Shown here: piece by piece, positions 2,786-35,300 of the stretch
How the letters are laid out: every line of letters begins with the position of its first letter
Position numbering within the stretch: the stretch's first letter is position 1
Position numbers and translations under genes: made by a program
IMG/VR virus record: IMGVR_UViG_3300045988_134073
Location: 1 to 36,763 of that record
DNA: 36,763 bases
Reading direction: 5' to 3' (one strand)
DNA from: a virus
The notes under the pieces: model-generated
Seen by the model: only the letters and a program-made list of their open reading frames with translations
Told to the model about the DNA's origin: nothing
The model's database searches: none

Positions 2786-2900
2786 TCTGATAATGTGCTA
2801 ATGTGATAATGTGCTAATATGCTAATGTGCTAATATGCTAATGTGCTAATGAGTGGCGCAGCCATTAGCATATTGCCACATTAGCATATTAGCTCATTAT
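2786..2900. repeat. Zipper hairpin R1 (gctaat(g/a)t arrays, centre gagtggcgcagcc)
   Basis: Left arm 2790-2850, centre 2851-2863, right arm 2864-2899. It fills the whole terS-terL spacer. Confidence 0.9.
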
Positions 2901-3248
2901 CTACTGTTCATTAATGAGCTTTTGAGTTAGGTCTATCAGTGGGTCGGAACTTTGGTCGGTGGTCAGCTCTTCTGTAGTGAGTTGCAGCTGCTTCATCTGT
3001 CGCGTGACGGAGGCTTGTGCGTCGCGCTGAATTTTAAACACGGGGTGGGGCTGCATCTTGCGGCCGTAGCGTGTCTCTTCCCACACGACGGTGGTATCGA
3101 GTCGGTCAATCTCGTCAGTGGCGAGTTCGAGCGTTCGCATAGCTCCTGCTAACGATTGTATCTGCATTTCAAGGCTGGTATTGTACGTTCCCGACTTCTT
3201 CAGTGCTTTCGTGATGCGGGCATACCATTGTTTCGTAGTGCGTGCCAT
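2901..3248 (-). CDS. terS: Terminase small subunit (P27-like)
   Basis: 115 aa, directly upstream of terL and downstream of HNH. Sequence style resembles P27-family small terminases. Confidence 0.65.
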   Translation of the reverse strand: MARTTKQWYARITKALKKSGTYNTSLEMQIQSLAGAMRTLELATDEIDRLDTTVVWEETRYGRKMQPHPVFKIQRDAQASVTRQMKQLQLTTEELTTDQSSDPLIDLTQKLINEQ

Positions 3249-3365
3249 AGTGTTAATGTGCTAATATGCTAATGTGCTAATGTGGCCAATGTGCTGCTAA
3301 TAGGTTAATGAGTTAAGGATTGTGCCACTCATTAGCACATTAACACATTAGCATATTGGCACATT
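3249..3365. repeat. Zipper hairpin R2 (gctaatgt arrays, different centre)
   Basis: Left arm 3252-3313, loop taaggattgtgcc at 3314-3326, right arm 3327-3365. Confidence 0.85.
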
Positions 3366-3446
3366 CAACGTTGTGTGAAATATTGTTTAAGGGTGTTGAA
3401 TTGCCCAAAGTTCCGTAAATCGTAAAAAATGCTCGCGCAAAAAAAA

Positions 3447-3502
3447 GGGTTTGGGCGGGGTTTAACGCACCCCCACCCCCCTTAAAAAAAACCGCCCCCC
3501 CT
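3447..3502. promoter_or_regulatory. Candidate cos region (G/C-tract cluster)
   Basis: gggtttgggcggggtttaacgcacccccacccccc ttaaaaaaaa ccgcccccc, lying between HNH and terS. Confidence 0.35.
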
Positions 3503-3558
3503 GTTGGTGTGACGCTGATGAGCGATGAAGGTAGGGCAGAAGGCCACGTTTCTTACTC

Positions 3559-3621
3559 CGTTTTCGGTCGTTTTTTGTTCGTTTTCGGTCGTTTTTGGTA
3601 CGTTTTCGGTCGTTTTTGAGT
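3559..3621. repeat. Three 21-bp direct repeats (cgttttcggtcgttttt...)
   Basis: Copies at 3559-3579, 3580-3600 and 3601-3621. The 21-bp period equals two helical turns. Candidate terS or packaging-protein binding sites. Confidence 0.8.
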
Positions 3622-3624
3622 GCC

Positions 3625-3963
3625 TTACTCGTCACCAAAGAAGCGTTTGTTAACGCTCTCGGCTTGTCGCGCCTTGCGTTCGGCATTCGCTTTGCGGCCT
3701 GAGCGGCCCAACTCTGTGTGCGTCAGTACGTGGCAGTCGTGGCAGAGGGCGCGGAGGTTGTGTGCATCAAACATGAGCCGCTCCTTCTCCCTCGCTGTCG
3801 TACCCTCTTCGACGGGGCGCACGTGATGCACCTCAGTAGCAGCCGTCGTGCGGCCCTCAGCCTCACAACGTTGGCACAGAGGGTGAGCCGTGAGCACCAT
3901 GCGCCTTAGTTCCAACCAGTGGCGCGTGTGTATCATTCGCTTGTAGTCTTTGTCTTTAGCCAT
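3625..3963 (-). CDS. HNH endonuclease (packaging-associated)
   Basis: Motifs CQRCEAEG...EVHHV...NLRALCHDCHVLTH. Sits next to terS and terL. Confidence 0.9.
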   Translation of the reverse strand: MAKDKDYKRMIHTRHWLELRRMVLTAHPLCQRCEAEGRTTAATEVHHVRPVEEGTTAREKERLMFDAHNLRALCHDCHVLTHTELGRSGRKANAERKARQAESVNKRFFGDE

Positions 3964-3977
3964 AGTCTTACGAAATA

Positions 3978-4261: not shown

Positions 4262-4374
4262 TAATATGCTAATGTGCAAATGTGCAAATGTGCAAATGGT
4301 CGCCTTTGTACGCTGAGTAATTAAAACATTATTCAATCATTTGCACATTTGCACATTCGCACATTTGCACATTC
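4262..4374. repeat. Zipper hairpin R3 (gcaaatgt arrays, 40-nt core)
   Basis: Left arm 4262-4298, core gtcgcctttgtacgctgagtaattaaaacattattcaatc at 4299-4339, right arm 4340-4374. Confidence 0.9.
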
Positions 4375-4375: not shown

Positions 4376-4504
4376 TCAAGCCCTCTCTTGTTTGGTCTTG
4401 CCTTCTGATCGTTCCCTCTCGCGATAGGCCTCAGCGCGGCCCTCAAAGTAGCCGCGCCACAGTCCTCGCTCGCGGCCTAACACGTAGGCCACATAATTAC
4501 TCAT
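4376..4504 (-). CDS. Small hypothetical protein (42 aa), paralogous to the C-terminus of the next ORF
   Basis: Translated by hand as MSNYVAYVLGRERGLWRGYFEGRAEAYRERERSEGKTKQERA. It shares the RERG..GY..GRAE.Y motif with 4552-4854. Confidence 0.35.
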   Translation of the reverse strand: MSNYVAYVLGRERGLWRGYFEGRAEAYRERERSEGKTKQERA

Positions 4505-4551
4505 CAAGACAGTACTAAGATACAAATAAATTGTGTCATTATCAAGTGTCG

Positions 4552-4854
4552 TTACAACTTCAATTGTCGTTTAATCTCCTCCTCGTTATGATGCGTGATA
4601 GCTTCATAGCGACGGCCGTCGTCATAACCCTCGGCACGGCCCTTCTCGTAACCGTCGCGATAGCCTTCCTTGTGGCCGCGCTCACGGCCTATCGTGTAGC
4701 CTTCTTTCCAACACGATTGACGAAGGCGCGCCACTTCGTCGGCCATTGCCTCCTCGGCTCGGTAGCGGCCGAGCTTATACGTGAGCCATAGCACGACATA
4801 TACGGACGTGGCGTAAAAAAGAATTGTCAGTACGTCTTTTAACATGGGTATCAT
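4552..4854 (-). CDS. Hypothetical membrane-anchored protein with G-Y / R-E repeats
   Basis: N-terminal TM helix VLTILFYATSVYVVLWLTY, followed by GRERGHKEGYRDGYEKGRAEGYDDGRR. Confidence 0.5.
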   Translation of the reverse strand: MIPMLKDVLTILFYATSVYVVLWLTYKLGRYRAEEAMADEVARLRQSCWKEGYTIGRERGHKEGYRDGYEKGRAEGYDDGRRYEAITHHNEEEIKRQLKL

Positions 4855-4857
4855 CGT

Positions 4858-5073
4858 TTATTGTTCTTCATTCAATTCGTCTAAAAGGCTTTGAGCGCAA
4901 GCCTTCGCCCACCATAAATCGTCCAGGTTGTTATTACTTGCAGCGAATTCTTTAATTGTCACCCAACCTAACCATTTTTGGCCCTGTACTGCATAGACCT
5001 TTGTGCCTACGCTTTCGTATTCTTTAATCCTGAATGCCTTCATTTTACTCATTGTTGGTTTGGTAGTAGTCAT
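4858..5073 (-). CDS. Hypothetical protein
   Basis: 71-aa ORF packed tightly in the minus-strand early operon. Confidence 0.45.
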   Translation of the reverse strand: MTTTKPTMSKMKAFRIKEYESVGTKVYAVQGQKWLGWVTIKEFAASNNNLDDLWWAKACAQSLLDELNEEQ

Positions 5074-5236
5074 TGCCGTATTTTAGTTGCTGTATCTCCT
5101 CACTGCTTAGCGCGTTGGGCGAGAAGAGGAGGGTCTCTTCTAAGTGAGCGCGCACGCATCGGGGGTAGCGCAGTCGCCCGTTAGGGCGGCGACTGAGCCA
5201 AATCTTGTGGCGTTGTCGTAGGTCGTTCATAGTCAT
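5045..5236 (-). CDS. Hypothetical protein
   Basis: 63-aa ORF with short overlaps to both neighbours. Confidence 0.4.
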   Translation of the reverse strand: MTMNDLRQRHKIWLSRRPNGRLRYPRCVRAHLEETLLFSPNALSSEEIQQLKYGNDYYQTNNE

Positions 5237-5556
5237 TCGGGGGTATTAGGTAGGAAGGACTCAGAGTAGGCCCAATACATTACGCAGAACGCTTCACAAA
5301 ACGTTTTCCAATTCATTACTTCTGGAATGAAGTAGTGAGTGGACACAAAAGGGTCTTCCGTAGAGCCATCCCATACCACTAATGGCCCGCTGGCATCGTT
5401 CGGATACTCATCGCGTGAGTGCCATAGCGCGTCAAGGCGACGGAACTCTACGGTGTGGGCGGCGTCGCGCTCGCGCAGTAAGTCAATGTGTAAGGGCGCG
5501 CCCGCCTCTACGTCCTCAGGGCGCGCAAAGAGTTGATTAACAAAAGTTTCATTCAT
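5233..5556 (-). CDS. Hypothetical protein
   Basis: 107-aa ORF with a 4-nt overlap to the downstream ORF. Confidence 0.5.
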   Translation of the reverse strand: MNETFVNQLFARPEDVEAGAPLHIDLLRERDAAHTVEFRRLDALWHSRDEYPNDASGPLVVWDGSTEDPFVSTHYFIPEVMNWKTFCEAFCVMYWAYSESFLPNTPE

Positions 5557-5818
5557 AGTTCAGCCATTTATCTTCATAGTATAACCATTTATCTTTAAAG
5601 TCAGCCATTACTCGGTCGTTGTAAGTCTTGTCCTTCTCCTGATATAGGGCGAAAGTGTTTTTACACCCGAAAAAGGGAATTAACTCAATGCGGATTACGT
5701 CACATCGGCCGCTAAAGCTAACCTCGACGAGGCTTGCACGCGTGTTGAATTGCATCGTCTGTGCCTCACGAAGGTAGACTAAGATGTCGGCCTTCGTCGT
5801 CTTCTTCGCTTGTGTCAT
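5549..5818 (-). CDS. Hypothetical protein
   Basis: 89-aa ORF, part of the overlapping operon chain. Confidence 0.5.
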   Translation of the reverse strand: MTQAKKTTKADILVYLREAQTMQFNTRASLVEVSFSGRCDVIRIELIPFFGCKNTFALYQEKDKTYNDRVMADFKDKWLYYEDKWLNYE

Positions 5819-6228
5819 TTTATCACGCTTTGAAGTTGTTCGTAGATGTGGCGGTCGCTCTTCATGCGCAGCAGCGCACGGCGCACCTTGTCGCGATACT
5901 CATCATTGTCGCCTGTGCGATCGGCTATGAGCAACACGATATCGGCATAGTAGTCGCTACACTCGCAAGCATCATCGGCACACTCAATGCCGTAAAGCTC
6001 CTGTGCAAAGCTATCCCATGCGCGACGCGCACGGTGGGTAGCTTCGAGGGCATACTTTAGGCGCTGCTTCAGTCCTTGCTTCATGCCGAAGCCTAATCGC
6101 TCAACACGCGTCTCAGCGTTGAGCATAAGCGTACTCGTCACGTCGCCCATGAGGTAAGCCACGTTGGTAAGAATGCGTGTGGCCTCGGGTATCTGTTCTC
6201 GGGGTACGAGTTCTTCTTTCTGTTTCAT
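5815..6228 (-). CDS. Hypothetical protein
   Basis: 137-aa ORF with a 4-nt overlap to the next gene. Confidence 0.5.
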   Translation of the reverse strand: MKQKEELVPREQIPEATRILTNVAYLMGDVTSTLMLNAETRVERLGFGMKQGLKQRLKYALEATHRARRAWDSFAQELYGIECADDACECSDYYADIVLLIADRTGDNDEYRDKVRRALLRMKSDRHIYEQLQSVIK

Positions 6229-6265
6229 AGTGTGTAAGAGTTATAGATTGTTGTGTGAAAGTGCT

Positions 6266-6817
6266 TCATCGGAAGCACGAGAATTTAAAGCCATACTCCT
6301 TTGCTCTGCGCTCAGTGGATAGACTGCGCTGCGTCTCTGGCGCGAAGTACCAGAGCATGGAGCAGCTCTGAGTGTAAGGAATGTAACCAAGTAGAGACAA
6401 CGTTTGGCGTATCTTCCGCGTCTTCTTGCTATGCGCGGGGGCGAAGTAGAAGTTGTGGCGCGGTTCTTGGCCACTCATGATGCGGAGTTCGTCCACGCGT
6501 CGTTGGCGGTGGAGGCGTCTCCCCCGCTCCTTGTAGCGATTCTTGTAGAGTTCGGGGTTTGCCTTCTTATCTATCACGTAGTAGGCGCGAGCGTGGAGCA
6601 TAGCGCGTCGCAACGTCTCGCGCTTGTAAGTAGGGTCCTTCTTCACTCCATAGGAGTTGGCCAACTTATACACCATATCAATTCCACACCCCAACTCGTG
6701 GGCCATGTCCTTAGCGGGCGTAATGGGGAAGCGACTCCTAAACATTTGTTCGCCTTCAGGGGTAAGGCGGTACGTTCGCCTTCTACCCTCTATGTAAATG
6801 TACTTCGGGTTGTACAT
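6266..6817 (-). CDS. Hypothetical basic protein
   Basis: 183-aa, K/R-rich ORF. The antisense ORF at 6404-6838 has an implausible composition. Confidence 0.5.
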   Translation of the reverse strand: MYNPKYIYIEGRRRTYRLTPEGEQMFRSRFPITPAKDMAHELGCGIDMVYKLANSYGVKKDPTYKRETLRRAMLHARAYYVIDKKANPELYKNRYKERGRRLHRQRRVDELRIMSGQEPRHNFYFAPAHSKKTRKIRQTLSLLGYIPYTQSCSMLWYFAPETQRSLSTERRAKEYGFKFSCFR

Positions 6818-6943
6818 GGTGTTTTGTTCGTGTCGTGATGTTCGTTATGATTGTTCGTTTTTGCTTGCACAATAAAGGACCCTTAATTATCTTTGCACCG
6901 TCCTTTAAGCGCATCTAATGGATTCCACGAAAGCATTTAGCGC

Positions 6944-7180
6944 TTAGTGCTCGGAAGCCTCCACGTCGTTGGAGGCTTTTTTTGTCTCCTTATCGCGCAA
7001 GCGGATAAAGCCTCTACGCTCACACTCACGCAACAATTCGTAATCGTCGGCCGAAATCATGCAGGGCGTTTCACCGTTGATGTTGACGTAACCGCTCGGT
7101 ATGCGAAACCGTTCACATATGCGGAGCCGCGTTTCACGACGGCAGCGCCAGTAGACAACGACGTAGATGAGTTGTGCCAT
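6944..7180 (-). CDS. Hypothetical protein
   Basis: Start trimmed to MAQLIYVVVYW. The 3' end contains a plus-strand terminator-like hairpin. Confidence 0.4.
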   Translation of the reverse strand: MAQLIYVVVYWRCRRETRLRICERFRIPSGYVNINGETPCMISADDYELLRECERRGFIRLRDKETKKASNDVEASEH

Positions 7181-7217
7181 AGTGGGTGCTTTATCTTTTT
7201 CGTTACTTTTTGGGGTT

Positions 7218-7895
7218 TTACCTAAAACTCTCGTTCCTGAATACAATGACGTGCATCATTTCGTTCATGCGGTCCACCAATCGCACGCCATACCGCTGGC
7301 GAAGCTCTTTCCCCGTTAGGTTGGTAGTGACGAGGGTGAAGAGGCCGCGAGCGTAGCGTGCCTCCAGTAGTTCGGTGATAGGCTCTATCACGTTGCCGTA
7401 GTCTACCACCTCGGCTGGCTCTGTGCCTACGTCGTCAATGGCTAACACACCGACGCTCATGAGGTGAACCTTCGCGGTCTTGTAAGTGGCAGCCACGGCA
7501 CGAGCCTCAACGAAGCGGACCGTATCGAGGCCGTACTGTGTGAACTCCGTTGGCAGCATACTTCGCGCCCTGAGCCATTCCACGGCATTCTGTATGGCCA
7601 ACGCCAAGGTGGTTTTACCATTGCCCGTTGTGCCACAGAATAGCAAACCATTCGGTTGCGCCCCTGTAAGGTGGCGGGCCACTTCGCCTACGATGCGTGT
7701 CGTGTCTTCGTCCATTTGCAGCGTGCGCCCTCTGCGCTCCACCTCCACTTCGTAGGCAGAGTAAAGCAGACAGTAAGCGTCTGCGACCGCCAGGGGAAGC
7801 CTAAAGGCGTGTGCTGTAGTCCGTTGCCGAAGTAGCTGCGACATCAACTCCTTTGCGTCGGGCAAGTGAACTTGCGTTGCTATTTTTCGTTCCAT
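7218..7895 (-). CDS. DnaC/IstB-like AAA+ helicase loader
   Basis: Walker A GTTGNGKTT, Walker B LAIDDVGTE and sensor motif LVTTNL. The start was chosen at MERKIATQ and overlaps the upstream ORF by about 95 nt. Confidence 0.8.
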   Translation of the reverse strand: MERKIATQVHLPDAKELMSQLLRQRTTAHAFRLPLAVADAYCLLYSAYEVEVERRGRTLQMDEDTTRIVGEVARHLTGAQPNGLLFCGTTGNGKTTLALAIQNAVEWLRARSMLPTEFTQYGLDTVRFVEARAVAATYKTAKVHLMSVGVLAIDDVGTEPAEVVDYGNVIEPITELLEARYARGLFTLVTTNLTGKELRQRYGVRLVDRMNEMMHVIVFRNESFR

Positions 7896-8706
7896 GAGTG
7901 TTGCGATTTTGTTGTTGCTGAATGCGAAGCCACGAAGTAAAGTGACGTTTGAGGTCGGTGAGGTCGTCGTGTTGTGCCTTGTCGTTGACGCGGCAGTCGA
8001 GCGCAAAGGCATCAAGCCATTCGCGTAGCTCGTCGCCGCTCAGGTGGTAGCGCATACGCACCAATTCACACCATGAAGCCTCAGCCATCAACGATGCCAA
8101 CAATCCCGTAAACGATGCTTCAACGTCTTCCGTCGTCGGTGATGACGGCAGCGCTTTTTCTACATCGTCTTTTTCTTTACTTTCCTTTACTTTACTTTGT
8201 GTACTTTCTTGCACACTTTTGTGCAGAAATGGTGCTTTCTTGCACAAGTTTGTACATTTATCGGCTTTTTTACCGAAGATTGGTGCATCTTTAGTCGAAC
8301 TTTCGACTATTCCAGTCGAATTTTCGTCTAAAAGGTTGTACGCTTCTATCGACGCTGCACGCCTACTATCTACACATATCTTTTTGTATCGTTCTTGAAT
8401 ACCTCTACTCGTCAGTACACCTTCCTCGTCAAGCATACGCCTATCTAACAACCCTAACGTAAGGCAGCTCTCTAAGACTTCTTGTATATACACCTCTCCA
8501 TACCCCGTTTGTTCCGAAATGATGAAGGGCAACTCTTTATCCCACGTCATGAAATACCCACTCTTGTAAATATAGCATAGCAGGAGAGCATATACTGCGA
8601 TCGCCTTACCACCGTTACGCCGAATTAACTTGCGTATCTTTATGTCCTGAAAAAAGTCTACTTCAAAGGGGAAGTAGTCTAAGCCCGACTTCTTCTGTCG
8701 GCTCAT
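7801..8706 (-). CDS. Replication initiation / replisome-organizer protein (DUF4373-like N-terminus)
   Basis: The N-terminus MSRQKKSGLDYFPFEVDFFQDIKIRKL is typical of Bacteroidota phage DnaD-like proteins. Lies upstream of the DnaC-like gene. Confidence 0.6.
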   Translation of the reverse strand: MSRQKKSGLDYFPFEVDFFQDIKIRKLIRRNGGKAIAVYALLLCYIYKSGYFMTWDKELPFIISEQTGYGEVYIQEVLESCLTLGLLDRRMLDEEGVLTSRGIQERYKKICVDSRRAASIEAYNLLDENSTGIVESSTKDAPIFGKKADKCTNLCKKAPFLHKSVQESTQSKVKESKEKDDVEKALPSSPTTEDVEASFTGLLASLMAEASWCELVRMRYHLSGDELREWLDAFALDCRVNDKAQHDDLTDLKRHFTSWLRIQQQQNRNTHGTKNSNASSLARRKGVDVAATSATDYSTRL

Positions 8707-8797
8707 AATTCGTGTGGTTTCGTATAAGGTCAATAAGTAGCACAACACTGCGGCCCTCTCTGTTGCATTCCTCTCACCACTTATTGGGGTGAGGCGG

Positions 8798-8901
8798 CCT
8801 CCTGTGTCATCGCCCGAGTTCGCATTGCAAGGATAGAAAGCTCATAGCGGCTTCCCCCCTCCTGTGTCATCCTCTTTCGTATTTGGACTGCGCATTGCAA
8901 G
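8798..8901. repeat. Iteron-like direct repeats (candidate ori or regulatory)
   Basis: cctcctgtgtcatc at 8798-8811 and 8858-8871. cgcattgcaag at 8821-8831 and 8891-8901. All within a 245-bp ORF-free gap upstream of the replication gene. Confidence 0.45.
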
Positions 8902-8993
8902 CTTCACACCTCACTCACTATATGTAAGCAATGGGGAAACAACTCACACCGCAGCGTCGTGCTTTAATGGTTGATAGTGTACAAACGGCTTAT

Positions 8994-9437
8994 TTACTCA
9001 TGGTCGCTCAGCACCTCAACGATAGGGGTAAGATTGATGCCTAACACCTCAAACTCGCTAAAGTCAGAGTCACTCATACACTTGACGAATGTCTCGTAAG
9101 CATCAAGCATGTTAGGAGACAGAACCAAGTAATCACGCTTAACGATGCGCTCTTTGCCTGTCTTCTCGTTGACGAGAAGGCCTTCACAACGTACCTTATA
9201 GATCTTATCGCCATTTAGAGAACCTACCCAAAAGGCTGCTATGTTGCGCTTCACACAAGCCTCCACACCTACGTCTTCGACACCATTATAAGCACATACT
9301 TTTTCAGTAGCACGCGACTCAGCCTCAGCGAAAGTGGCGGCACGCACCAACCACGTCTCCTTCATGTTGGTCTTCTCTCCTTTTTCGGTCACACCGTCAT
9401 AACTGACGCGTACCTCTACCCAAAATCTTCTGTTCAT
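8994..9437 (-). CDS. DUF4494-like protein
   Basis: The pattern W.E.+V.Y....K..E.WLV.A..F.EAE.R resembles Bacteroidota DUF4494 proteins, from memory. Confidence 0.45.
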   Translation of the reverse strand: MNRRFWVEVRVSYDGVTEKGEKTNMKETWLVRAATFAEAESRATEKVCAYNGVEDVGVEACVKRNIAAFWVGSLNGDKIYKVRCEGLLVNEKTGKERIVKRDYLVLSPNMLDAYETFVKCMSDSDFSEFEVLGINLTPIVEVLSDHE

Positions 9438-9470
9438 AATTTTCCGTTTTCGTTAATAAAATGGTTGAGT

Positions 9471-9647
9471 GAGGAGTGTGGGAGTCGAACCCACTAATGT
9501 GCGATTGTTTCGAAGCTTATCCACTGCACGCCCAATAACCCAAAACCAACTTCATGCAGCAGACGACGATACCTCTCTTTGCCGCCTATCCGATTAACGG
9601 CCTATACTCCTCGTCTTTTCCATTACTATTCTCACGAACCGTAATGG
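9471..9647 (-). ncRNA. tRNA-like RNA unit 1 (142-nt body plus 5' hairpin)
   Basis: 7-bp acceptor gaggagt/actcctc, D-loop GTTAATCGGATAG and T-arm gtggg-TTCGACT-cccac, with about 87 nt between the D and T arms. The 5' hairpin is at 9620-9647. Confidence 0.5.
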
Positions 9648-9690
9648 AAATACAATCTTAATAATCTAACTACCTTATTCACACGAATGC

Positions 9691-9815: not shown

Positions 9816-9913
9816 CCACTCATTCTATGAATGAATTAGAAGCCCATGGTCAGCGCGTGACGGGGCATACAATTAGAACTTTATAAATCATGAGTAAAAC
9901 CATTTCACACCTT

Positions 9914-11027: not shown

Positions 11028-11039
11028 AACTTTTTCGTA

Positions 11040-28396: not shown

Positions 28397-28634
28397 AGCG
28401 TATGCGCTTATTCTCTTCGCCCAGTGCGTCCATTTTCTTTGTACTTCCATCTACTTTCTTTTGCGTTTCTAATAGTTCGCGGCTCACGTCTTCATACATG
28501 AGCTTATACGTATCGTGTACGCTCTTGGCCGTATCGGCCTTGCGCGCACTGCGGTTGGCAAACCATGCTATGGCGGCACCAATGCCCCCCGAAGGTATTG
28601 CCCACTGGATTATTTGTAAGATAGTGTCCGCCAT
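28194..28634 (-). CDS. N-terminal TM plus coiled-coil protein (holin or i-spanin-like)
   Basis: Start trimmed to MADTILQIIQWAIPSGGIGAAIAWFA. Overlaps the next ORF by about 200 nt in another frame. Confidence 0.45.
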   Translation of the reverse strand: MADTILQIIQWAIPSGGIGAAIAWFANRSARKADTAKSVHDTYKLMYEDVSRELLETQKKVDGSTKKMDALGEENKRIRYALNRLTRAIQAIQRCPHSNNCPVSDELSLDDDGNATSRAKSKRTDYRQRDSARADDNRSLDATDKG

Positions 28635-28650
28635 TCTTCCTTTCTTTCTT

Positions 28651-28797
28651 GTTGACGAGTTCACAGGTAAGTTTGTTGACGAGTTCACGAGTTGACGAGT
28701 TAACAGGTAAGTTTGTCTTGTGAGCTAACTTACTCGTCAACTTGTTAACTCGTCAACTTGTTAACTTGTTAACTCGTCAACTTGTCAACTTGTCAAC
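28651..28797. repeat. Zipper hairpin R5 (gttgacgagtt(a/c)ac units)
   Basis: The left arrays pair with gttaactcgtcaac arrays. The centre is near 28714-28725. Confidence 0.85.
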
Positions 28798-29259
28798 TTA
28801 TAAGTTTACTCCAATCTCGTTGAGCCACTTCTTTACGTCGAACGAAGGGCAAGCCTTACTGGGGTTCAACTGATTGTGGCCAACGATTTTGACCGTAGGG
28901 AAGCGGCGGTGGAAGTCCTTGACGTAGGCCTCAAGGGCGGTGCGTTGAGCAGCGGTGCGTGTGTCCTTCGGCCTCATCTGCCTATCGCAACCGCCTGCGT
29001 AGACGATGTGGCGCGATGTGGAGTTGTAGCCGCTTGCGCCATTGGTCACCTCCCAAGGGTCGACTATCAAGTCTTCATTATTCTTGACGAGCCTCTCTAT
29101 GCGGCCGTCGAGGTGGACGAGGTCGGTATATCCTACTTGCTTCCAACCATGACCTCCTTTGCTTACGGGGTCGCAGTGCCAGTGGCGTATGTCGGCCGCT
29201 GTCACCTCACGGCCTTCAGGAGTGGCGGTGCAGTGGATTACGAGACGTTTTAGTTGCAT
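28798..29259 (-). CDS. N-acetylmuramoyl-L-alanine amidase (endolysin, PGRP/T7-lysozyme type)
   Basis: Motifs LVIHCTATPEG, GW..VGY and GHNQL..KACPSFDV. Confidence 0.85.
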   Translation of the reverse strand: MQLKRLVIHCTATPEGREVTAADIRHWHCDPVSKGGHGWKQVGYTDLVHLDGRIERLVKNNEDLIVDPWEVTNGASGYNSTSRHIVYAGGCDRQMRPKDTRTAAQRTALEAYVKDFHRRFPTVKIVGHNQLNPSKACPSFDVKKWLNEIGVNL

Positions 29260-29261
29260 AG

Positions 29262-29427
29262 GGTTAATGTGCTAATGCGTTAATGTGCTAATGCGTTAAT
29301 GTGCTAATGTGCTAATGTGGTAATGTGCTAATGTGGTAATGTGCTAATGTGCCAATGTGTTAATGTGCTAATGTGTTAATGAGTGGCGCAGCCATTAGCA
29401 TATTAACACATTAGCATATTAGCACAT
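29262..29427. repeat. Zipper hairpin R6 (gctaatg(t/c) arrays, centre gagtggcgcagcc)
   Basis: Left arm 29262-29380 (119 nt), centre 29381-29393, right arm 29394-29427 (34 nt). Confidence 0.9.
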
Positions 29428-29904
29428 TTATTTAGTCTGCGCTGCAGCGGCGGCATCCATACCAGGGAACTTAGTAGGCATGCCCGCGTTCTCGAGGTTA
29501 ACGCTATATGTGGCGTCGTCCTGCGCTGGAGCATCCTCCTCGATAGAGGTGATCACAAACTTTCCTTCGAGGTAAGGGGTTTGAGTACCTGCCTTGCCGT
29601 CGCCACGTGGGAAGCACTTCACGTCAACGGCCTTACCTACGCCCCAAGAAGCAGAAATCTCGGTGAAGCCGCTCTCCGTCTCATCGTAGAAGCGGAGGCC
29701 GTCGGCACTAATTGTGATAGAAAGTCCTGTAACGCTCTTGTCCTTCCAAAGTCCTGCACCCGCGCCTTGCGTTGCTACAGGCTTCACGGCTCTCTCCTTT
29801 GTCTCAGAGTTGTACGTTACTTTGTGGCTTGAACAGTGACCTACGGCCTTGCCGTCTATTGAGAGCAAGAGGTCACTACCATTGATATAACCAGTGTTTG
29901 CCAT
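29428..29904 (-). CDS. Major tail protein
   Basis: 158 aa in the expected position. The N-terminus MANTGYINGSDLLLSIDGKAVGH resembles phi13/TP901-type major tail proteins. Confidence 0.7.
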   Translation of the reverse strand: MANTGYINGSDLLLSIDGKAVGHCSSHKVTYNSETKERAVKPVATQGAGAGLWKDKSVTGLSITISADGLRFYDETESGFTEISASWGVGKAVDVKCFPRGDGKAGTQTPYLEGKFVITSIEEDAPAQDDATYSVNLENAGMPTKFPGMDAAAAAQTK

Positions 29905-30184
29905 AATGTGTTATGAGTTTAATGAGTTGATGAGTTTAATTAGTTTAATGAGTTGATGAGTTTAATTAGTTTAATGAGTTTAATGGGTTTAATGAGTTAA
30001 TACTTGCACAATGTCTTAAGGCTTTTGCCCTTACAGGGCGCGACTGCTCCAACGCGTGATACCCAGGGTGTCGCTTCGCTTGCCCTGGGCTATGTGCTCC
30101 ATTGGGCTTTCAGCCCGCCCTTGCTAAATCTGAAACTTGAATAAACTTATTAAACTCACTAAACTTATTAAACTAATTAAACTC
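29905..30184. repeat. Zipper hairpin R7 (gagtt(t/g)aat arrays) with REP copy C in its loop
   Basis: Left arm 29905-30003, REP element 30013-30132, right arm 30133-30184. Confidence 0.85.
30013..30132. repeat. REP/MITE-like element, copy C (inverted relative to A)
   Basis: Reverse complement of 1-120 with about 4 mismatches. Confidence 0.85.
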
Positions 30185-30740
30185 CCTTCTTCGCCGCCTT
30201 ATCGACGTTGCGCTCGAAGTCAGTCCAAAGGCGCTGCTCGATGCCAGCCGCTTCGGTCTGCTCGGTCATGGCGAGAAACTTATACGGAGACATACGCCCC
30301 GTGCTATGGCCTGAGCGGCTATAGTCGCGCCACTTCTTCTGAGCGAAGCGGCCTTGGCGATATTGCGCGTTGCCCTTGCGACGGCCCACGTTGCGCTGTT
30401 TCGTACCTTCCTCAGCAAATAGGAGTACAGGCTTCTGCTTGCCCTGTCGGTTGGTATGTATGCCCTTCTTCGCTCCGTGGGGCTTAACGCTCACCATAAA
30501 GCCCGTGCCGTAGCGCTTGGGGTAGAGGCGAGCGTAAACGCCCTTGTCCACCCCCGTCTTGGTCGAAAGGCCCGAAGTGCGCACCTTCGTCTGTGCTGCC
30601 TTCTTTAGGCGATTGGCCTCACGCCTCATCGAGGCGGCAATGGCCTTGCGCTGCTCCTTAGGCGAGAGGCTGGCGTAAAGCTTTGCCAATTCGCGTTGGA
30701 AGGTCTGCAGCGCTTTCTCGTTGTCGTTATCCATTAGCAA
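30177..30740 (-). CDS. HK97 gp10-like tail/head-tail component
   Basis: 187 aa. Called from position and basic composition. Confidence 0.5.
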   Translation of the reverse strand: MLMDNDNEKALQTFQRELAKLYASLSPKEQRKAIAASMRREANRLKKAAQTKVRTSGLSTKTGVDKGVYARLYPKRYGTGFMVSVKPHGAKKGIHTNRQGKQKPVLLFAEEGTKQRNVGRRKGNAQYRQGRFAQKKWRDYSRSGHSTGRMSPYKFLAMTEQTEAAGIEQRLWTDFERNVDKAAKKGV

Positions 30741-31111
30741 CGGAGTTTAAAGGAGAGTGACTGCAAGTAAGCATCGTCCGTCCACGACTCAGCGGCATCG
30801 ACTAAGTAAGACGAACGGACGGTCAACCCTGCCGAGGTGGTAATGCTCACGTTGTCAAGCGCTTCGCGTACGGCCTCAGCCAAAGCCACAGAGCCATTGT
30901 AAGTAGCGGCATAACAATCCACTACGATCGTGGCCGTATCGGCACTTTGAGCATGTTTGGCAACGGCCGTTTCGAGGGCCTCGCGATGATAGCAGACGTA
31001 AGGAAGCACGGCCTCATCTGTCACGACGGGAAATACTTTCGTTACTTTATCAGCTAACCTTTCGCTCAGCACCTCGTAGACGGCAGTGCCTGCGCTTAAT
31101 ACTGTTTTCAT
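30734..31111 (-). CDS. Tail completion protein (DUF3168-like)
   Basis: 125 aa between the head-closure gene and the gp10-like gene. Confidence 0.45.
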   Translation of the reverse strand: MKTVLSAGTAVYEVLSERLADKVTKVFPVVTDEAVLPYVCYHREALETAVAKHAQSADTATIVVDCYAATYNGSVALAEAVREALDNVSITTSAGLTVRSSYLVDAAESWTDDAYLQSLSFKLRC

Positions 31112-31552
31112 TACTTTAGGTGTTAGGGATTAGTGATTAGTGATTAGGTGTTAGGGATTAGTGATTAGTGATTAGGTGTTAGGGATTAGGGATTAGTGAT
31201 TAGGTGTTAGGGATTAGGGATTAGGGATTAGGGATTAGTGATTAGGTGTTAGGGATTAGGGATTAGGGATTAGGGATTAGTGATTAGGTGTTAGGGATTA
31301 GGGATTAGGGATTAGGGATTAGTGATTAGGTGTTAGGGATTAGGGATTAGGTGTTAGGGGTTGGGGGTAGGTTGGGGGTAGGTTGGGGGTAGGTTGGGGT
31401 CAGGGGGCTAAAAAGTTTGTTTTTGTGGGGAGCGAGGCATAAGGAGACCTTTTAACCCCCTAATCACTAATCACTAACACCTAACACCTAATCACTAATC
31501 ACTAACACCTAACACCTAATCACTAATCCCTAACACCTAACACCTAATCTCA
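31112..31552. repeat. Zipper hairpin R8 (gattag(g/t) and gtgttagg units plus G-tract repeats), 441 bp
   Basis: Left arm about 31118-31350. taggttggggg repeats at 31357-31408. Right complementary arm at 31456-31550. Confidence 0.9.
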
Positions 31553-31858
31553 TCACACGTTGACGCGCTGACAGAGGAGCGACAGCATTCCCTTACTGCG
31601 GTTAGGCTCAATGGCCATAACGGTGTAGAGGTGTTCGCCCATGAGCTGCACGCGCCACCCCTCACCAATGGGGTGTACATCGCGTATGCGGAAGGTCACG
31701 GTGTAAGCGGCAAAGTGTTCGCCCACCTCTTCACTCCGATTGCCCGCCCACTTGACGCGCTCGGCCCAAATCGTTCGGGTCGGGGCGAAAGTGGTTTGCT
31801 CTTCGCCATATTCGTTCGTCGTCTGAACGGGGCGAAAGAGTTGTAAGTGATATCTCAT
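31553..31858 (-). CDS. Head closure / head-tail adaptor protein
   Basis: Start at MRYHLQLFRPVQTTNEYGEE, with an ATGA overlap to the upstream stop codon. Typical head-tail joining pattern. Confidence 0.65.
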   Translation of the reverse strand: MRYHLQLFRPVQTTNEYGEEQTTFAPTRTIWAERVKWAGNRSEEVGEHFAAYTVTFRIRDVHPIGEGWRVQLMGEHLYTVMAIEPNRSKGMLSLLCQRVNV

Positions 31859-32169
31859 TCCTCCCGCACGCATAGTCTTCTGTATTGTTTGATGATAGAT
31901 GAAGCGCCCCACGGGATTTCACTGTACTGCTGCGGAGCATCGTTTTCGCGGTGGTCGTAGGCCGAGCCTCCTACCAACAGAATAGCTTGCACCAAGGGGG
32001 CGGGCAGTGACCCACCGCCCATTAGCTTTAGCTCATCGAGTGTGCGGTTTGTAGCGCGCACCACTGAAGCCTCAGCGGCATCAAGGCATTGCTGTAGGTA
32101 GTCGTCGTCGTCGCTAAAATCATCGGCGCGAACGTGTTTTTTAAATAGGGATAGGGCTACTTCTGACAT
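31855..32169 (-). CDS. gp6-like head-tail connector
   Basis: 104 aa with the motif ADDFSDDDDYLQQCLDAAEASV. Confidence 0.65.
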   Translation of the reverse strand: MSEVALSLFKKHVRADDFSDDDDYLQQCLDAAEASVVRATNRTLDELKLMGGGSLPAPLVQAILLVGGSAYDHRENDAPQQYSEIPWGASSIIKQYRRLCVREE

Positions 32170-32251
32170 AATATGAATGTGTGCTTAGTCTCTAAAGATT
32201 ACTATTTCCATGACTTATCATTACAAATGTGGCTCTTCGTGCGCTCCGTTA

Positions 32252-32317
32252 CCCATCACCGAGAAGTTGAAAACCCCTCACCGAGAAGTCTGAAACCCAT
32301 CACCGAGAGGTAGAGAG
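32252..32317. repeat. Three 22-bp direct repeats (ccc(a/c)tcaccgaga(a/g)gt...)
   Basis: Copies at 32252-32273, 32274-32295 and 32296-32317. There is no inverted partner. Confidence 0.8.
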
Positions 32318-32336
32318 CGCATCGCTGAGCGCGTCG

Positions 32337-32714
32337 CTACGACATTGCGTACTGTGCTTGCTCTTGCAACTGCTTGTTGAGCGTGCTTGAGGGGAGGAAC
32401 GCGACGTGGAGCGAGCGAATGTGCTTCGCGCTTACATCGTCTTTGTTCATCTCGCCCCCATTTGAGCGCAATGTAGTGCGGAATGAGCCAAGTGAGCCAA
32501 GCTTTACCATACCGCCACTTTGTAACTTTTCGGCAATGGCCTCCTCAAAGGCGCAAAGGGCCGTGAGTACGTCGGCATGGGTGAAGGTGGTTGACTCGCT
32601 TATGCGCTCGCAAAGTTTGTCGCGCGTGATAGTACCGCTATAGCTGATAGCGGGGTAGTAGCGCCACTTTTGGTCGCGTGAGTTCTTGATACTACGTGTT
32701 ACTAATTTAATCAT
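32337..32714 (-). CDS. HU-like DNA-binding-fold protein (Bacteroidota HU-HIG type)
   Basis: 125 aa containing ...ALCAFEEAIAEKLQSGGMVKLGSLGSFRTTLRS... Confidence 0.6.
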   Translation of the reverse strand: MIKLVTRSIKNSRDQKWRYYPAISYSGTITRDKLCERISESTTFTHADVLTALCAFEEAIAEKLQSGGMVKLGSLGSFRTTLRSNGGEMNKDDVSAKHIRSLHVAFLPSSTLNKQLQEQAQYAMS

Positions 32715-32726
32715 GATTGTAGAGCT

Positions 32727-33134
32727 TTATTGGTTTTTCTTCTTATTGGCTTTATATACATTCTTAAACTCGACGTTCTTGAGTAATAGCTTATTATTAA
32801 TCCACGTCGAAGGCACGTAGCGCACGCGGGCTTTCTGAACGAGTGCTGAACTTACATCGTCTTTGATTTCGACGCCTACTGACTTCGCAGTAAGGCGAAA
32901 CGCCCCCAATGAGCCAAGGCGAACGGTATAACCAGAGAGCAGCGCGTGAAGTACTTGTCGTTCAAGTTCTTTGAGTACACCCATAGCGTCGGCACGCGTG
33001 AGGGTACACTTCGCGCTGATTTCAGCTGCCAACTGTTCGAAGTTGGTAACGGCCGCAGGTAGGGGCGCGGGGTAGAACATGTTCTCGCCAGTCTTAAAGT
33101 TTTTGCGAGCGAGGGGTTTGTATAGATAGGTCAT
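32727..33134 (-). CDS. HU-like DNA-binding-fold protein, paralogue
   Basis: Start trimmed to MTYLYKPLARKNF. Contains ...VLKELERQVLHALLSGYTVRLGSLGAFRLTAKS... Confidence 0.6.
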   Translation of the reverse strand: MTYLYKPLARKNFKTGENMFYPAPLPAAVTNFEQLAAEISAKCTLTRADAMGVLKELERQVLHALLSGYTVRLGSLGAFRLTAKSVGVEIKDDVSSALVQKARVRYVPSTWINNKLLLKNVEFKNVYKANKKKNQ

Positions 33135-33310
33135 AGGAAATGTGCAAATGTGTAAATGTGCAAATGTGCAAATGGTTGAATGATGTTTTATAATCAATGT
33201 GCTTAATGTGCAAATGCTGAGTTAATGTGCGAATGTGCGAATGGTCGCCTTTGTACACTGAGTAATTAAAACATTATTCAATCATTCGCACATTTGCACA
33301 TTTGCACATT
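33135..33310. repeat. Zipper hairpin R9 (gc(a/g)aatgt arrays, core plus extra half-core)
   Basis: Arrays at 33138-33174 and 33196-33243, half-core at 33175-33195, core at 33244-33283, right arm at 33284-33310. Confidence 0.9.
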
Positions 33311-33319
33311 AGTAAGCGC

Positions 33320-34432
33320 TTACTCGCTTACGGTCACCTTGCCCAGTGCAAAGGCGTCGGGGCGGAGCGTGGTCGTGCCGTAGTTGACGTTGAGTACGAA
33401 GTCAACGGCATCCTTGCGAGCCTGGCTATAGGGGTCGATGATGAACGAGATGTCGCCAAACATGCCCATAGGTTGGTAGCGCCAGTCGCCAAGACCAACG
33501 AAGCCTTCACCAATGTAGTGCGTGCAGAAGACGGGGAGGCCCGCGATGTGGTCGTTCTCACACACCATGATGCCAGAGCCCGCGTCCTTAGGAGTGGCTT
33601 CGGCAATGGCCTTCTGCGCTTGTGTCATAACCCAGCACAAGTTGCTACCGTCAACGCCAGAGGCCAACACCTTTGCCTTCATATTGTTGAAGTCGGCAAA
33701 GGTAGGAGTAGCGCTCAGCGCGATCGGTTTAGCAGCCTTCGCCACGAATGGGCCTACCAAAGTAGTAGCCGCGGTAGCCTTGGTGGTAGAGAACAAGATC
33801 TTGTTCAGCAACATGGCTACAGACTGAGGCATTACCTTCTTCACGATCGTTTCGATGATGCCCTCCGTCTGGATAATCGTCTGACGCGTTACAGGAATGG
33901 CCACGCCAATACGCTGAGGTGAAGCGGTGAGCTTAGATAGTTTAATATTCGTGTCGGTGAGCGCAACGCCCTCGCCTTGGATTTGTGCCTCAACGGCCTC
34001 GTAGGTGGGCCATACGTAGTCACCAGCCAAGCCTGTAGGCATGGGGAGGCCTACCTTGTTGAGGATTAGGCCCTCTACTAAGGGGTCGAGAATGTCTTGT
34101 ATCTTGAGCGGAATGATACCGCCCGTAGTGGCGTTGCTCACCACCATGAGGTCGCGCATGAAGACGATTTGCGTCTGTCGGCCCGCCTCCATGTTTTCGC
34201 GGACCATTTTATTGGCGTCACGAAGAAGGTCGGGGTTTTGCTGTGCCTGAGTGGCTGCAGCTTGCATGCGCATGCGGAGCAATTCGTTGTCGCGCACTAA
34301 GGCGTCGTACTCTGCGTTCTCTGCATCAGTGCGTTCGCGCTTCTCCTTCTCGCAGAGGTCGGCTATTTCCGAAATGCGGGCGCAGTTCTTTTGGTATTTG
34401 TCAACAATCTGACGTACCGTGAGTTTGTTCAT
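33320..34432 (-). CDS. Major capsid protein, HK97 family
   Basis: 370 aa with an N-terminal coiled-coil delta-like domain. Follows the prohead protease. Confidence 0.85.
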   Translation of the reverse strand: MNKLTVRQIVDKYQKNCARISEIADLCEKEKRERTDAENAEYDALVRDNELLRMRMQAAATQAQQNPDLLRDANKMVRENMEAGRQTQIVFMRDLMVVSNATTGGIIPLKIQDILDPLVEGLILNKVGLPMPTGLAGDYVWPTYEAVEAQIQGEGVALTDTNIKLSKLTASPQRIGVAIPVTRQTIIQTEGIIETIVKKVMPQSVAMLLNKILFSTTKATAATTLVGPFVAKAAKPIALSATPTFADFNNMKAKVLASGVDGSNLCWVMTQAQKAIAEATPKDAGSGIMVCENDHIAGLPVFCTHYIGEGFVGLGDWRYQPMGMFGDISFIIDPYSQARKDAVDFVLNVNYGTTTLRPDAFALGKVTVSE

Positions 34433-34470
34433 AATCGTAATGAATTAATTGTTATTAAATGGTTAATGCT

Positions 34471-35133
34471 TTAAAGTGATTGCTTTGCCGCGCTGCGCAT
34501 GGCCTTTACTTGTTCCTCGACGCGGAGGGCGGCAGCGTTGTCTGTTGAGGGGGCGGGAGTCAATCCGCGTAGGTCGCGTGCGCTTACTTCCGTGTCGGGG
34601 TAGGCGGGCATGGGCGTGAGCGTAAAGTCGTAGATGCCACGAATAGCATGAATGGTGTAAAGCGTTTCAGCCTTTCCCGTCTCCTTGTTTTTGGTCGTCT
34701 CGCTCGTCACGTCGGGTTGGCGGTACGAACAAGAGAACATGAAGGAGCAGCCATCGATGTCGCCACGTCGTACGAGTTCGAGCGCGCGGTCGCCGTCGTC
34801 GGTGTTGGGCGCATCGAAGGAGAAGTGGACGCCCCGCTCGTCGATGTCGTACTGTAGCGTACCCTCTCCGCGCTTGCTGCGTGCGAGCAATGTGGCAAAG
34901 TCGTGGTTCATGGTCATCTTGATGTCGCAGCCGTCGAGTAGGTCCTTCGTTATGGCTTCGGGGGCAATCTGTTCGCGCACGACTTCGTCCTCGTCCTCCC
35001 ACAGTGGGGCAGAGGGCGTGTTGAACAGAATGGCATATCCCTCAATGGTGCGGCTTTCGCCCTCGCCCTCGCTGCCTTGGCGGCTGCGCACGTGGACGGT
35101 GCCTGAGGAGTGGAATTGTAATTGCTTATTCAT
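34471..35133 (-). CDS. Prohead protease (HK97 family)
   Basis: 220 aa between the portal and capsid genes. Confidence 0.8.
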   Translation of the reverse strand: MNKQLQFHSSGTVHVRSRQGSEGEGESRTIEGYAILFNTPSAPLWEDEDEVVREQIAPEAITKDLLDGCDIKMTMNHDFATLLARSKRGEGTLQYDIDERGVHFSFDAPNTDDGDRALELVRRGDIDGCSFMFSCSYRQPDVTSETTKNKETGKAETLYTIHAIRGIYDFTLTPMPAYPDTEVSARDLRGLTPAPSTDNAAALRVEEQVKAMRSAAKQSL

Positions 35134-35136
35134 AAG

Positions 35137-35300
35137 GTGTAAATGTGCTAATGTGGGAATGTGCTAATGTGGGAATGTGCTAATGTGGGAATGTGCTAAT
35201 GTGGGGATGTGCTAATGTGTTAATGAGTGGCGCAGCCATTAGCATATTAACACATTAGCATATTAACACATTAGCATATTAACACATTAGCATATTAATA
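35137..35300. repeat. Zipper hairpin R10 (gctaatgtgggaat arrays, centre gagtggcgcagcc)
   Basis: Left arm 35137-35224, centre 35225-35237, right arm 35238-35300. Confidence 0.9.

Follow-up and report, generated by a model that had tools for sequence, protein, structure and literature searches.

Ten gene junctions are filled by inverted arrays of short repeats

We analyzed a 36,763-nucleotide stretch of viral DNA (IMG/VR record IMGVR_UViG_3300045988_134073, positions 1–36,763; the whole stretch is referred to hereafter as the window), in which ten junctions between minus-strand genes are filled by hairpins made of inverted arrays of short repeats. An original prediction, drawn from the letters of the window, had described these elements as intercistronic "zippers", and we confirm them as real. 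In all ten spacers, a G/T-rich tandem array of 7–9-nt units is followed by a central core and then by the inverse, C/A-rich array. Tandem Repeats Finder (TRF) reports arrays with periods of 7, 8 and 9 nt and 3–34 copies at 10/10 intervals; every array faces its reverse complement across the central segment (an inverted-repeat search agrees), and a zipper detector, defined by two TRF arrays with reverse-complementary consensus units at most 400 nt apart, recovers 10/10 loci. RNAfold predictions for the coding (minus) strand of the spacers give z-scores of −6.4 to −16.3 against dinucleotide shuffles, with comparable values for the other strand. The ten loci total 1,857 bp (5.1% of the window), and the detector finds no zipper between 4400 and 22596, in keeping with the predicted lack of such hairpins in 4500–22500.

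The zipper between TerS and TerL (2786–2900; minus strand, like all ten) consists, in mRNA sense, of a 5′ arm of ~4.5 GCTAATRT units, the loop GGCTGCGCCACTC and a 3′ arm of ~7.5 AYATTAGC units that ends 5 nt before the TerL ATG (z = −10.6). The Family A unit occurs with a variant loop directly upstream of TerS (3249–3365, z = −8.1), and again between the major tail protein and amidase genes (29262–29427, z = −6.4), where a 5′ arm of ~36 nt faces a 3′ arm of ~117 nt. At the portal–prohead protease junction (35137–35300, z = −10.6), a 5′ arm of (GCTAATGTGTTAATAT)n, the loop GGCTGCGCCACTC and a 3′ arm of (CCCACATTAGCACATT)m display a 16-nt higher-order period that is also present at several other loci. 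The Family B unit, GCRAATGT, builds the zipper upstream of the 90-aa gene and the HNH–TerS block (4262–4374; conserved 41-nt core, equal arms of 36/36 nt, z = −10.2), that between the tape measure gene and an 812-aa tail gene (22597–22734, z = −7.7), and that between the major capsid gene and HU-HIG gene 1 (33135–33310, z = −8.6), which holds a second partial core in inverse orientation beside the 41-nt one. Central loops and cores are thus common to several loci (GGCTGCGCCACTC at 2786, 29262 and 35137; the 41-nt core at 4262 and 33135 and, inverted, at 22597), which identifies the zippers as paralogous copies of a few families, a dispersed repeat family rather than a set of independent inventions.

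The remaining three zippers belong to other units. Between the amidase gene and a 164-aa gene (28651–28797, z = −8.3), the unit GTTGACRA/GTTAACAA repeats with a period of 8 and a 24-nt higher order, correcting the 14-nt unit first proposed, and the 5′ arm is the longer one. The junction of the 187-aa and major tail protein genes (29905–30184, z = −7.0) uses the unit GAGTTTAAT, with a period of 9, and the head closure–tail terminator junction (31112–31552, z = −16.3) uses GATTAGG/GTGTTAGG, with a period of 7, in a 5′ arm of ~91 nt and a 3′ arm of ~237 nt. The claim that essentially the whole spacer is repeat does not hold at these last two, whose centers carry ~100–120 nt of non-unit sequence: a copy of a 115-nt host-type repeat (29996–30138) in the former, and a GGTTGGGGGTA array accompanied by a small hairpin in the latter.

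Two further observations concern these centers. On the plus strand, 31123–31399 reads as (TTAGGGA) ×34 followed by (GGTTGGGGGTA) ×3.7, a telomere-like sequence on the template strand of the late operon that could form G-quadruplexes. The ~115-nt structured repeat (GGGCGGGCTGAAAGCCCAATG...GCCCTGTAAGGGCAAAAGCC) is present three times in the window, as an inverted pair at 3–123 and 149–267 and at 29996–30138 inside the zipper; it also occurs in several relatives and is 96% identical to a segment of an uncultured Prevotella sp. (UMGS287) chromosome (contig L231, 6311–6622). It has no Rfam match, and its fold has a z-score of only −2.1.

Zippers are hypervariable between near-identical phages

A portal search of IMG/VR returned 18 genomes with 96–99% portal identity, and exact-protein look-up of the major tail protein returned 10 further close genomes from European Nucleotide Archive (ENA) human-gut assemblies, made with other assemblers; junction alleles across relatives were anchored on the flanking coding sequence. 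The same junctions are occupied by zippers in these ~28 near-identical genomes, which come from different samples and assemblers, and nearly every genome has an allele of its own while the genes are 92–100% identical. The TerS–TerL zipper has 18 distinct alleles in 20 genomes, the portal–protease zipper 23 in 27 genomes (94–222 nt), the major tail protein–amidase zipper 22 alleles and the major capsid–HU-HIG zipper 20; alleles of the zipper upstream of TerS span 90–237 nt. The copy-number variation that had been proposed as a check on orthologous junctions was found, in that allele lengths differ by steps of 8 or 16 nt (as at the portal–protease junction), and the two arms vary independently. 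Some alleles display duplication of the whole hairpin, and at one junction the core is reverse-complemented between alleles, a signature of inter-arm recombination.

Zippers may also be partly or wholly missing. Empty alleles of 22–23 nt occur at two junctions, with near-identical flanks and no target-site duplication: at head closure–tail terminator, a 23-nt empty spacer coexists with zippers of 210–499 nt, and the allele series of the amidase–164-aa junction runs from 22 to 213 nt, including direct-repeat-only and loop-flipped alleles. A few alleles retain a single arm, such as the 61-nt C/A-rich-only array upstream of the major tail gene (where alleles range from 61 to 291 nt), for which no structure is predicted (minimum free energy of 0). 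In the 3′ arm of the portal–protease zipper, substitutions of the TAA to CCC type weaken pairing and remove partners for G, which argues that composition matters and not stem stability alone.

These comparisons establish that zippers are heritable, lineage-restricted and dispensable at any one junction, and show them evolving extremely fast, by unit slippage, whole-hairpin duplication and core-flipping recombination between arms. One ENA assembly (ERZ28573476 scaffold_828, L134) is the same phage, with 100% nucleotide identity in every compared gene, and has runs of N inside the arrays, so that the exact copy numbers of long arrays derived from short reads are uncertain.

Arm order, position and predicted accessibility follow a fixed polarity

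In 132/132 phage alleles and in every strict chromosomal pair (11/0), a G-rich array precedes a C-rich one. Over 40 unit families this order accounts for 603 pair calls versus 36 and is the majority order in 36 families; most C-first exceptions are neighboring zippers that flank a short gene. Because the arm order of such a hairpin is identical on both strands, the RNA will have a G/U-rich array after the stop and a C/A-rich array before the start whichever strand is transcribed. Around chromosomal arrays (described below), the C-rich reading precedes an open reading frame (ORF) start in 45 cases versus 15 for the G-rich reading (p = 1.3e-4), and the G-rich reading follows an ORF stop in 58 cases versus 22 for the C-rich reading (p = 7e-5).

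Placement relative to the phage genes is equally tight. The stop codon and the ATG had been placed within 0–15 nt of the arms at most loci, and over 132 alleles the median arm distances per junction are 0–9 nt after the stop and 0–12 nt before the ATG; at 3249–3365, the nearest confident upstream stop (that of HNH, at 3625) is ~260 nt off. As predicted, the start-proximal arm is the longer one at 8/10 window loci, leaving an unpaired periodic tail, and the same is true of 109/132 alleles (83%), including all alleles at six junctions (18/18 at TerS–TerL and 22/22 at portal–protease, for example; the figure is 21 of 22 at major tail protein–amidase). This asymmetry in arm length is strand-specific, unlike the polarity.

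We computed partition-function folds for 142 alleles with their flanks, taking 28 non-zipper genes of the phage as controls. The unpaired probability at −20 to +10 of the start codon is 0.58, versus 0.58 ± 0.14 in the control genes; it is 0.23 in the 30 nt after the stop and 0.29 in the antisense mirror region. Antisense RNA is predicted to be more stable than sense RNA in 128/142 alleles (by a mean of 15.7 kcal/mol), such that the excess arm would be free of structure in the sense direction only: self-folding is possible for a G/U-rich excess but not for a C/A/U-rich one.

Zippers in other phages and in Bacteroidota chromosomes

Across 986 kb from relatives whose portals are ~65% identical, the detector found no zippers, versus 10 in the 36.7-kb window, and array density per 10 kb is 7.7 and 6.0 in two zipper-bearing groups versus 0.13 in the other relatives (~50-fold); together these differences exclude chance. 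GC content does not separate zipper-bearing from zipper-free relatives. The latter (~60 genomes) match the cultured Bacteroides uniformis phages F1, F2 and F4, and F1 displays a syntenic late-gene order without arrays, its junctions measuring roughly −14 to +40 nt. The original prediction had listed a lack of the structure in related phages as grounds for abandoning it; the ~65% relatives do lack it, which reveals lineage restriction and dispensability, and not that the zippers are unreal.

A phage with a 71% identical portal (L027) carries ~14 zippers of unrelated units (AGTTGAAA, AGTTTAAG, AGGTTATA), mostly bracketing small non-structural genes upstream of TerS. Five more contigs, with no detectable homology to the window portal, terminase or capsid in the stretch compared, contain zippers of the same kind and have a core in common. 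The L027-like phages likewise share a core, one different from those of the window.

Within IMG/VR, the octamer GCDAATRT is essentially private to the species of the window phage. Three consecutive copies of it occur in >120 stretches of 185,579 species genomes, almost all of them Bacteroidota among the matches listed, an enrichment that is judged from an estimated chance count (~1 match) and from the taxonomic skew of the matches. Those listed come from Prevotellamassilia, Prevotella, Alloprevotella, Bacteroides and many Bacteroidales metagenome-assembled genomes (MAGs), and from Chitinophaga, Danxiaibacter, Flavobacterium, Mucilaginibacter, Saprospiraceae and Prolixibacteraceae; isolate genomes are represented by, e.g., Danxiaibacter flavus and Chitinophaga agrisoli. 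Many of the chromosomal matches are solo direct arrays and about one quarter are full zippers by the detector (several confirmed by eye). The genes just downstream are housekeeping ones (ftsY, mraY, ftsW/rodA, gpsA, tyrS, Fe–S assembly) with no functional theme. On this sequence evidence, intergenic short-tandem-repeat elements of this type form a class that spans Bacteroidota, and the window phage carries them at very high density.

Two earlier generalizations have to be revised in this light. Zippers are not a late-operon feature, given their position at mostly non-structural genes in L027 and beside housekeeping genes in chromosomes. The view that selection acts on structure and not on sequence, proposed from a common architecture built of differing units, is too simple for hairpin-less C/A-only alleles, for substitutions that weaken pairing, and for an octamer family that recurs across a phylum.

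Genome context of the zippers

Scans of the window proteins with PHROG and Pfam indicate that the phage is temperate and siphovirus-like; almost all of its genes are on the minus strand. The late genes comprise those for the portal (35308–36522), prohead protease (34471–35133), major capsid (33320–34432), head closure (31553–31912), tail terminator (30734–31111), major tail protein (29428–29904), an N-acetylmuramoyl-L-alanine amidase (28798–29259) and tape measure (22739–25849), followed by tail and fiber genes down to 16141; at the other end of the window lie HNH (3625–3963), TerS (2901–3248) and TerL (1079–2785). In relatives, TerL is followed by the portal gene, which implies that the window is a circular permutation and that all ten zipper loci fall in one contiguous packaging–head–tail arc. 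An integrase of the Phage_int_SAM_5 type (12824–14095) is present together with replication and early genes. The region around it (11997–14106) matches a contig from an Alloprevotella MAG (L214) at 80% identity across 2.1 kb, and this match and the Prevotella match of the 115-nt repeat both point to a Prevotella-type host. No INPHARED phage gave a megablast match to the structural half of the window.

Two paralogous HU-HIG (HU/IHF-superfamily) genes lie on the minus strand directly after the major capsid gene (32337–32714 and 32727–33197). A 22-nt tandem repeat sits just downstream of an HU-HIG gene in both lineages (window 32251–32308; L027 6082–6131 and 20529–20578), with a repeat sequence that differs between them. 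The amidase gene, situated between the genes for the major tail protein and tail assembly, has a zipper on either side, and its L027 homologue is located upstream of TerS; it looks like a movable, moron-like cassette. Repeats of other kinds are also present. Collagen-like (Gly-X-Y) repeats of 9/45 nt (Pfam Collagen) occupy 18391–18597 within a 1348-aa tail-fiber gene, and a 21-nt tandem repeat (CGTTTTCGGTCGTTTTTGGTA, 2.9 copies, 94% match) at 3559–3618, between the HNH endonuclease and TerS genes, has a position suggestive of cos/pac packaging-site repeats. In one close relative (L136, 2286–3326), a gene for an IS110-family transposase and SLT/LysM genes stand upstream of the portal gene, at the expected terminase region.

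A possible role in translation and its rivals

We tentatively favor, at somewhat less than an even chance, a model in which zippers are slippage-driven, dispensable intergenic repeats that would provide the mRNA with a post-stop hairpin and an unstructured landing platform for Shine–Dalgarno-independent initiation. In Bacteroidota, such initiation is thought to need an unstructured, G-depleted leader. The G/U-rich array, beginning 0–9 nt past the upstream stop codon, would pair with the loop-proximal part of the C/A-rich array; the resulting hairpin, long and imperfect, would cap the upstream cistron and could plausibly block exonucleases and serve as a substrate of RNase III. The C/A/U-rich, G-poor array, usually the longer of the two and unable to pair with itself, would remain as a single-stranded periodic platform ending 0–12 nt before the AUG, a leader of the type suited to initiation of this kind in Bacteroidota. 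The ratio of copy numbers in the two arms would set the length of free platform, and slippage could then act as a cheap means of tuning expression. Among the roles originally listed, a standby site for Shine–Dalgarno-independent initiation fits best, in that it is always the G-poor arm that lies toward the start, the start region is predicted to be more open than its antisense mirror (0.58 versus 0.29) and chromosomal arrays share the orientation bias; the allele that retains a C/A-rich array alone upstream of the major-tail ATG is also in its favor. There is precedent in heptamer direct repeats just upstream of start codons, which are strain-specific in presence, vary by 7-nt indels and have been proposed to act in translational control (MacGregor 2015, PMC4679880), and a Nostoc preprint describes heptamer repeats that affect translation or transcription (10.1101/2022.06.06.494920).

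Several observations weigh against this model. Every one of its RNA-level steps is something we infer. Near-identical phages manage with empty 22–23-nt alleles, and F1 and ~60 relatives, whose genes follow one another in the same order, have short, array-free junctions. Start accessibility equals that of ordinary genes and is not higher, a result also expected if neutral or selfish insertions were filtered by purifying selection. Many chromosomal zippers lie between convergent genes and serve no start codon; the arm-length asymmetry of chromosomal zippers relative to genes is mixed (few cases, with crude ORF calls), and at two phage junctions, major capsid–HU-HIG gene 1 and amidase–164-aa gene, it is often the 5′ arm that is longer. 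The alleles are moreover related by descent, such that allele counts are not independent. An extended version of the model, which we hold to be unlikely, would have arrays of G-poor 7–9-nt units act, in Bacteroidota and their phages, as evolvable ribosome landing platforms that replace the Shine–Dalgarno interaction, with the G-rich array as an "anti-platform" setting exposure and capping the upstream cistron, slippage as a heritable and reversible dial of stoichiometry, and HU-HIG proteins perhaps reading the structures in addition.

The foremost rival, which we consider somewhat unlikely, holds that zippers have no function of their own: short-unit repeats, selfish or neutral, would expand in some Bacteroidota and their phages by slippage, quasi-palindrome template switching or other copying and be merely tolerated, with selection removing harmful insertions. 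The survivors would be those that are restricted to spacers, fold back on themselves and turn their G-poor side toward the following start codon. Presence/absence polymorphism, a unique allele in almost every genome, cores common to copies as in dispersed repeats, and an all-or-none density per genome, as for an element invading a lineage, would all follow, as would start accessibility no better than that of controls, chromosomal neighbors without a functional theme, and the fact that relatives and the cultured phage F1 do without zippers; every rule of polarity and placement could likewise come from purifying selection on such a repeat. Against it stand the lack of any transposase or RAYT among the scanned proteins and of target-site duplication, the recurrence of one octamer family from Prevotella to Chitinophaga and Flavobacterium (hard to obtain by neutral slippage alone), the 5% of a size-limited phage genome that is spent on zippers, and the longer start-proximal arm (83% of alleles, 100% at six junctions), which also needs explaining. 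Rho attenuation would give that arm a different task, as a C-rich, G-poor, rut-like loading site with the hairpin as pause or mask, making each zipper a conditional terminator that silences prophage late genes unless tight translation coupling or a phage antiterminator allows read-through. The 3′ arrays do have the expected composition (G-poor and moderately to strongly C-rich, e.g., CCCACATTAGCACATT and CCCTAAT) and length (40–240 nt), and only in the sense direction are they predicted to be single-stranded; titration by the 5′ arm is conceivable, and the phage is temperate (integrase at 12824–14095). We nevertheless regard this explanation as distinctly unlikely, since several units are only weakly C-rich (CATTAGCA has 25% C and 12.5% G), C-rich arrays directly precede the essential genes ftsY, mraY, ftsW and tyrS, no U-tract terminators coincide with zippers, and no antiterminator was identified in the Pfam and PHROGs scans of the window proteins.

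Zippers might instead act as DNA, as extruded hairpins or cruciforms or as arrays of binding sites recognized by the phage HU-HIG proteins, with a role in compaction, packaging or the exchange of cassettes and modules. HU-HIG proteins are a Bacteroidota-specific, rapidly diversifying clade (PMC5499826); their genes occur in every zipper-bearing phage genome that was examined with enough coverage, namely 18/18 close relatives, L027 (where three copies, at different genome positions, each have zippers around them) and another five zipper-rich contigs. Neither phage F1 nor any of 61 zipper-free relatives has one. HU-HIG, amidase and TerS genes are zipper-bracketed like cassettes, at different genome positions in two lineages, and loop flipping demonstrates that arms recombine. 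The co-occurrence may, however, reflect a shared host clade, there being few independent lineages; L167 and L168 encode HU homologues and have no zippers, and a purely duplex-DNA role does not predict the strand-specific arm asymmetry or the ORF orientation bias. Nor are recombination breakpoints enriched at zippers, which also counts against the recombination-linker role first listed: per-gene identity jumps of at least 4% in 28 relatives fall at 16/163 comparisons of zipper junctions versus 35/185 of ordinary junctions, in a crude test that takes the window, with its divergent capsid and 209-aa alleles, as the reference. As general zipper partners the HU-HIG proteins were rejected, a profile search over six-frame ORFs from 845 kb surrounding chromosomal arrays having given 1 match; as partners within the phages, their genes are a possible but unproven lead, and we consider a DNA-level element quite improbable. 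An artefact of short-read metagenomic assembly is barely credible. The arrays are repetitive, some exceed read length, and N-gaps interrupt them in one assembly of the same phage, but the same architecture recurs at the same junctions in ~28 genomes from different samples and assemblers and in the isolate genomes of Danxiaibacter flavus and Chitinophaga agrisoli, and the flanks are unique sequence, leaving only the copy numbers of long arrays in doubt.

As sequence-simple modules of strict polarity, set exactly between stop and start, zippers bear on the recognition of internal start codons by Bacteroidota ribosomes when no Shine–Dalgarno interaction is available, and their dozens of natural alleles (differing in copy number, empty or filled, or one-armed) offer a ready-made allelic series for reporter assays. 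If functional, they would constitute a compact, tunable part for operon engineering in gut Bacteroidota and their phages. If merely tolerated, they would still be the fastest-evolving loci of these phages, useful as strain markers, and a clean example of translation constraints shaping the persistence and orientation of repeats. A practical warning also follows, in that such arrays break or confuse short-read assembly and scaffolding.

Comparison with known systems

The combination of inverted short-unit arrays around a shared core, fixed polarity, stop-to-start filling, hypervariability, and high density in phages together with a phylum-wide distribution was not found in the literature searched, in line with the earlier remark that no described family with this design could be named; queries included literal 16-mers of the arrays, and subscription journals fell largely outside the search. 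Tandem repeats of short units in intergenic positions and palindromic extragenic repeats are each already known, with the heptamers of cyanobacterial short tandemly repeated repetitive (STRR) sequences as a further example of the former.

Among palindromic repeats, REP/BIME/REPIN elements, the Correia/NEMIS elements of Neisseria and ERIC of Yersinia are dispersed extragenic imperfect palindromes, found at gene ends and inside operons, whose co-transcribed hairpins affect mRNA stability or processing and which vary between strains. Zippers are likewise dispersed, extragenic, imperfectly palindromic and strain-variable, but their arms are arrays of 7–9-nt units, 30–240 nt long, unequal and of fixed polarity, and not a unique palindrome (REP background is given, in part, in PMC3733652). 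A REP/BIME/REPIN identity, which calls for an imperfect palindrome of 20–40 bp with a conserved end tag, was rejected, GTAG/CGTC tags being absent from 7/10 loci and part of the repeat unit elsewhere; no RAYT or transposase matched among the 40 window proteins scanned with Pfam or PHROGs (all but about six small ORFs). A MITE (miniature inverted-repeat transposable element) was rejected because, between empty and filled head closure–tail terminator alleles, a 22-nt spacer is replaced with no target-site duplication. Integron attC sites share imperfect inverted repeats that fill the junctions of co-oriented cassettes and act as folded single strands; this identity, which would entail an IntI integrase nearby and R″–L″/L′–R′ core sites with extrahelical bases, was discarded in view of the lack of an IntI (the Phage_int_SAM_5 integrase lies far from the zippers), the periodic arms, and an order of core-like motifs that is the reverse of R″...R′.

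Transcription signals fared no better. The proposed role as canonical attenuators or terminators is not borne out, with 0/9 terminator-like sites in 22000–36763 inside a zipper and arms that are A/T-rich and then followed by a start codon, in place of the GC-rich stem and U-tract of an intrinsic terminator. A sigma-70 promoter scan gave nothing informative at zippers, and a Bacteroides-type promoter (TTTG / TAnnTTTG), considered by eye for the CATTTGCA unit, was rejected, the GCTAATGT family having no TTTG and the 8-nt period misfitting the −33/−7 spacing. Rfam 15 returned no match for the whole window at gathering thresholds and none at E ≤ 1 for 29880–30220.

The intercistronic RNase III hairpins of T7 are unique, conserved sequences of ~50–60 nt with a defined internal loop, and are neither periodic nor hypervariable. 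Zippers resemble them as long imperfect hairpins between co-directional phage cistrons that would, if cleaved, leave a 3′ stem upstream and a free 5′ leader downstream, and their predicted stems of 25–90 pairs compare with the at least ~20 bp of a T7-type site; they differ in being periodic, hypervariable and dispensable, and are putative cleavage sites. BrickBuilt, a MITE of Porphyromonas gingivalis (PMC4596501), is also a multi-copy intergenic element of Bacteroidales with tandem repeats and proposed regulatory effects, but it is a direct 23-nt minisatellite with small terminal inverted repeats, lacking inverted arrays and tight stop–start placement.

The closest resemblance is to the long simple sequence repeats (LSSRs) with 5–11-nt units (Mrazek 2007, as summarized in PMC4679880) and to the TAACTGA heptamer repeats of Beggiatoaceae, Cyanobacteria and some Bacteroidetes (MacGregor 2015, PMC4679880). 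These are direct repeats only (169 direct sets versus one indirect in BOGUAY, PMC4679880), whereas nearly all phage arrays described here are paired with an inverse array, forming a register-slipping hairpin across a conserved core that fills an operon junction; the unit families also differ (GCDAATRT and others), and a density of 10 per 37 kb of phage genome is undescribed. Common to both are short non-triplet tandem units in intergenic positions, of fixed orientation and in many cases stopping a few nt short of a start codon, presence/absence between close relatives, indels of unit length, no theme among downstream genes and a proposed translational control. Apart from the pairing with an inverse array, zippers display what defines this class, namely arrays of 5–11-nt units beyond chance that are oriented toward start codons and vary by unit-step indels and by presence or absence.

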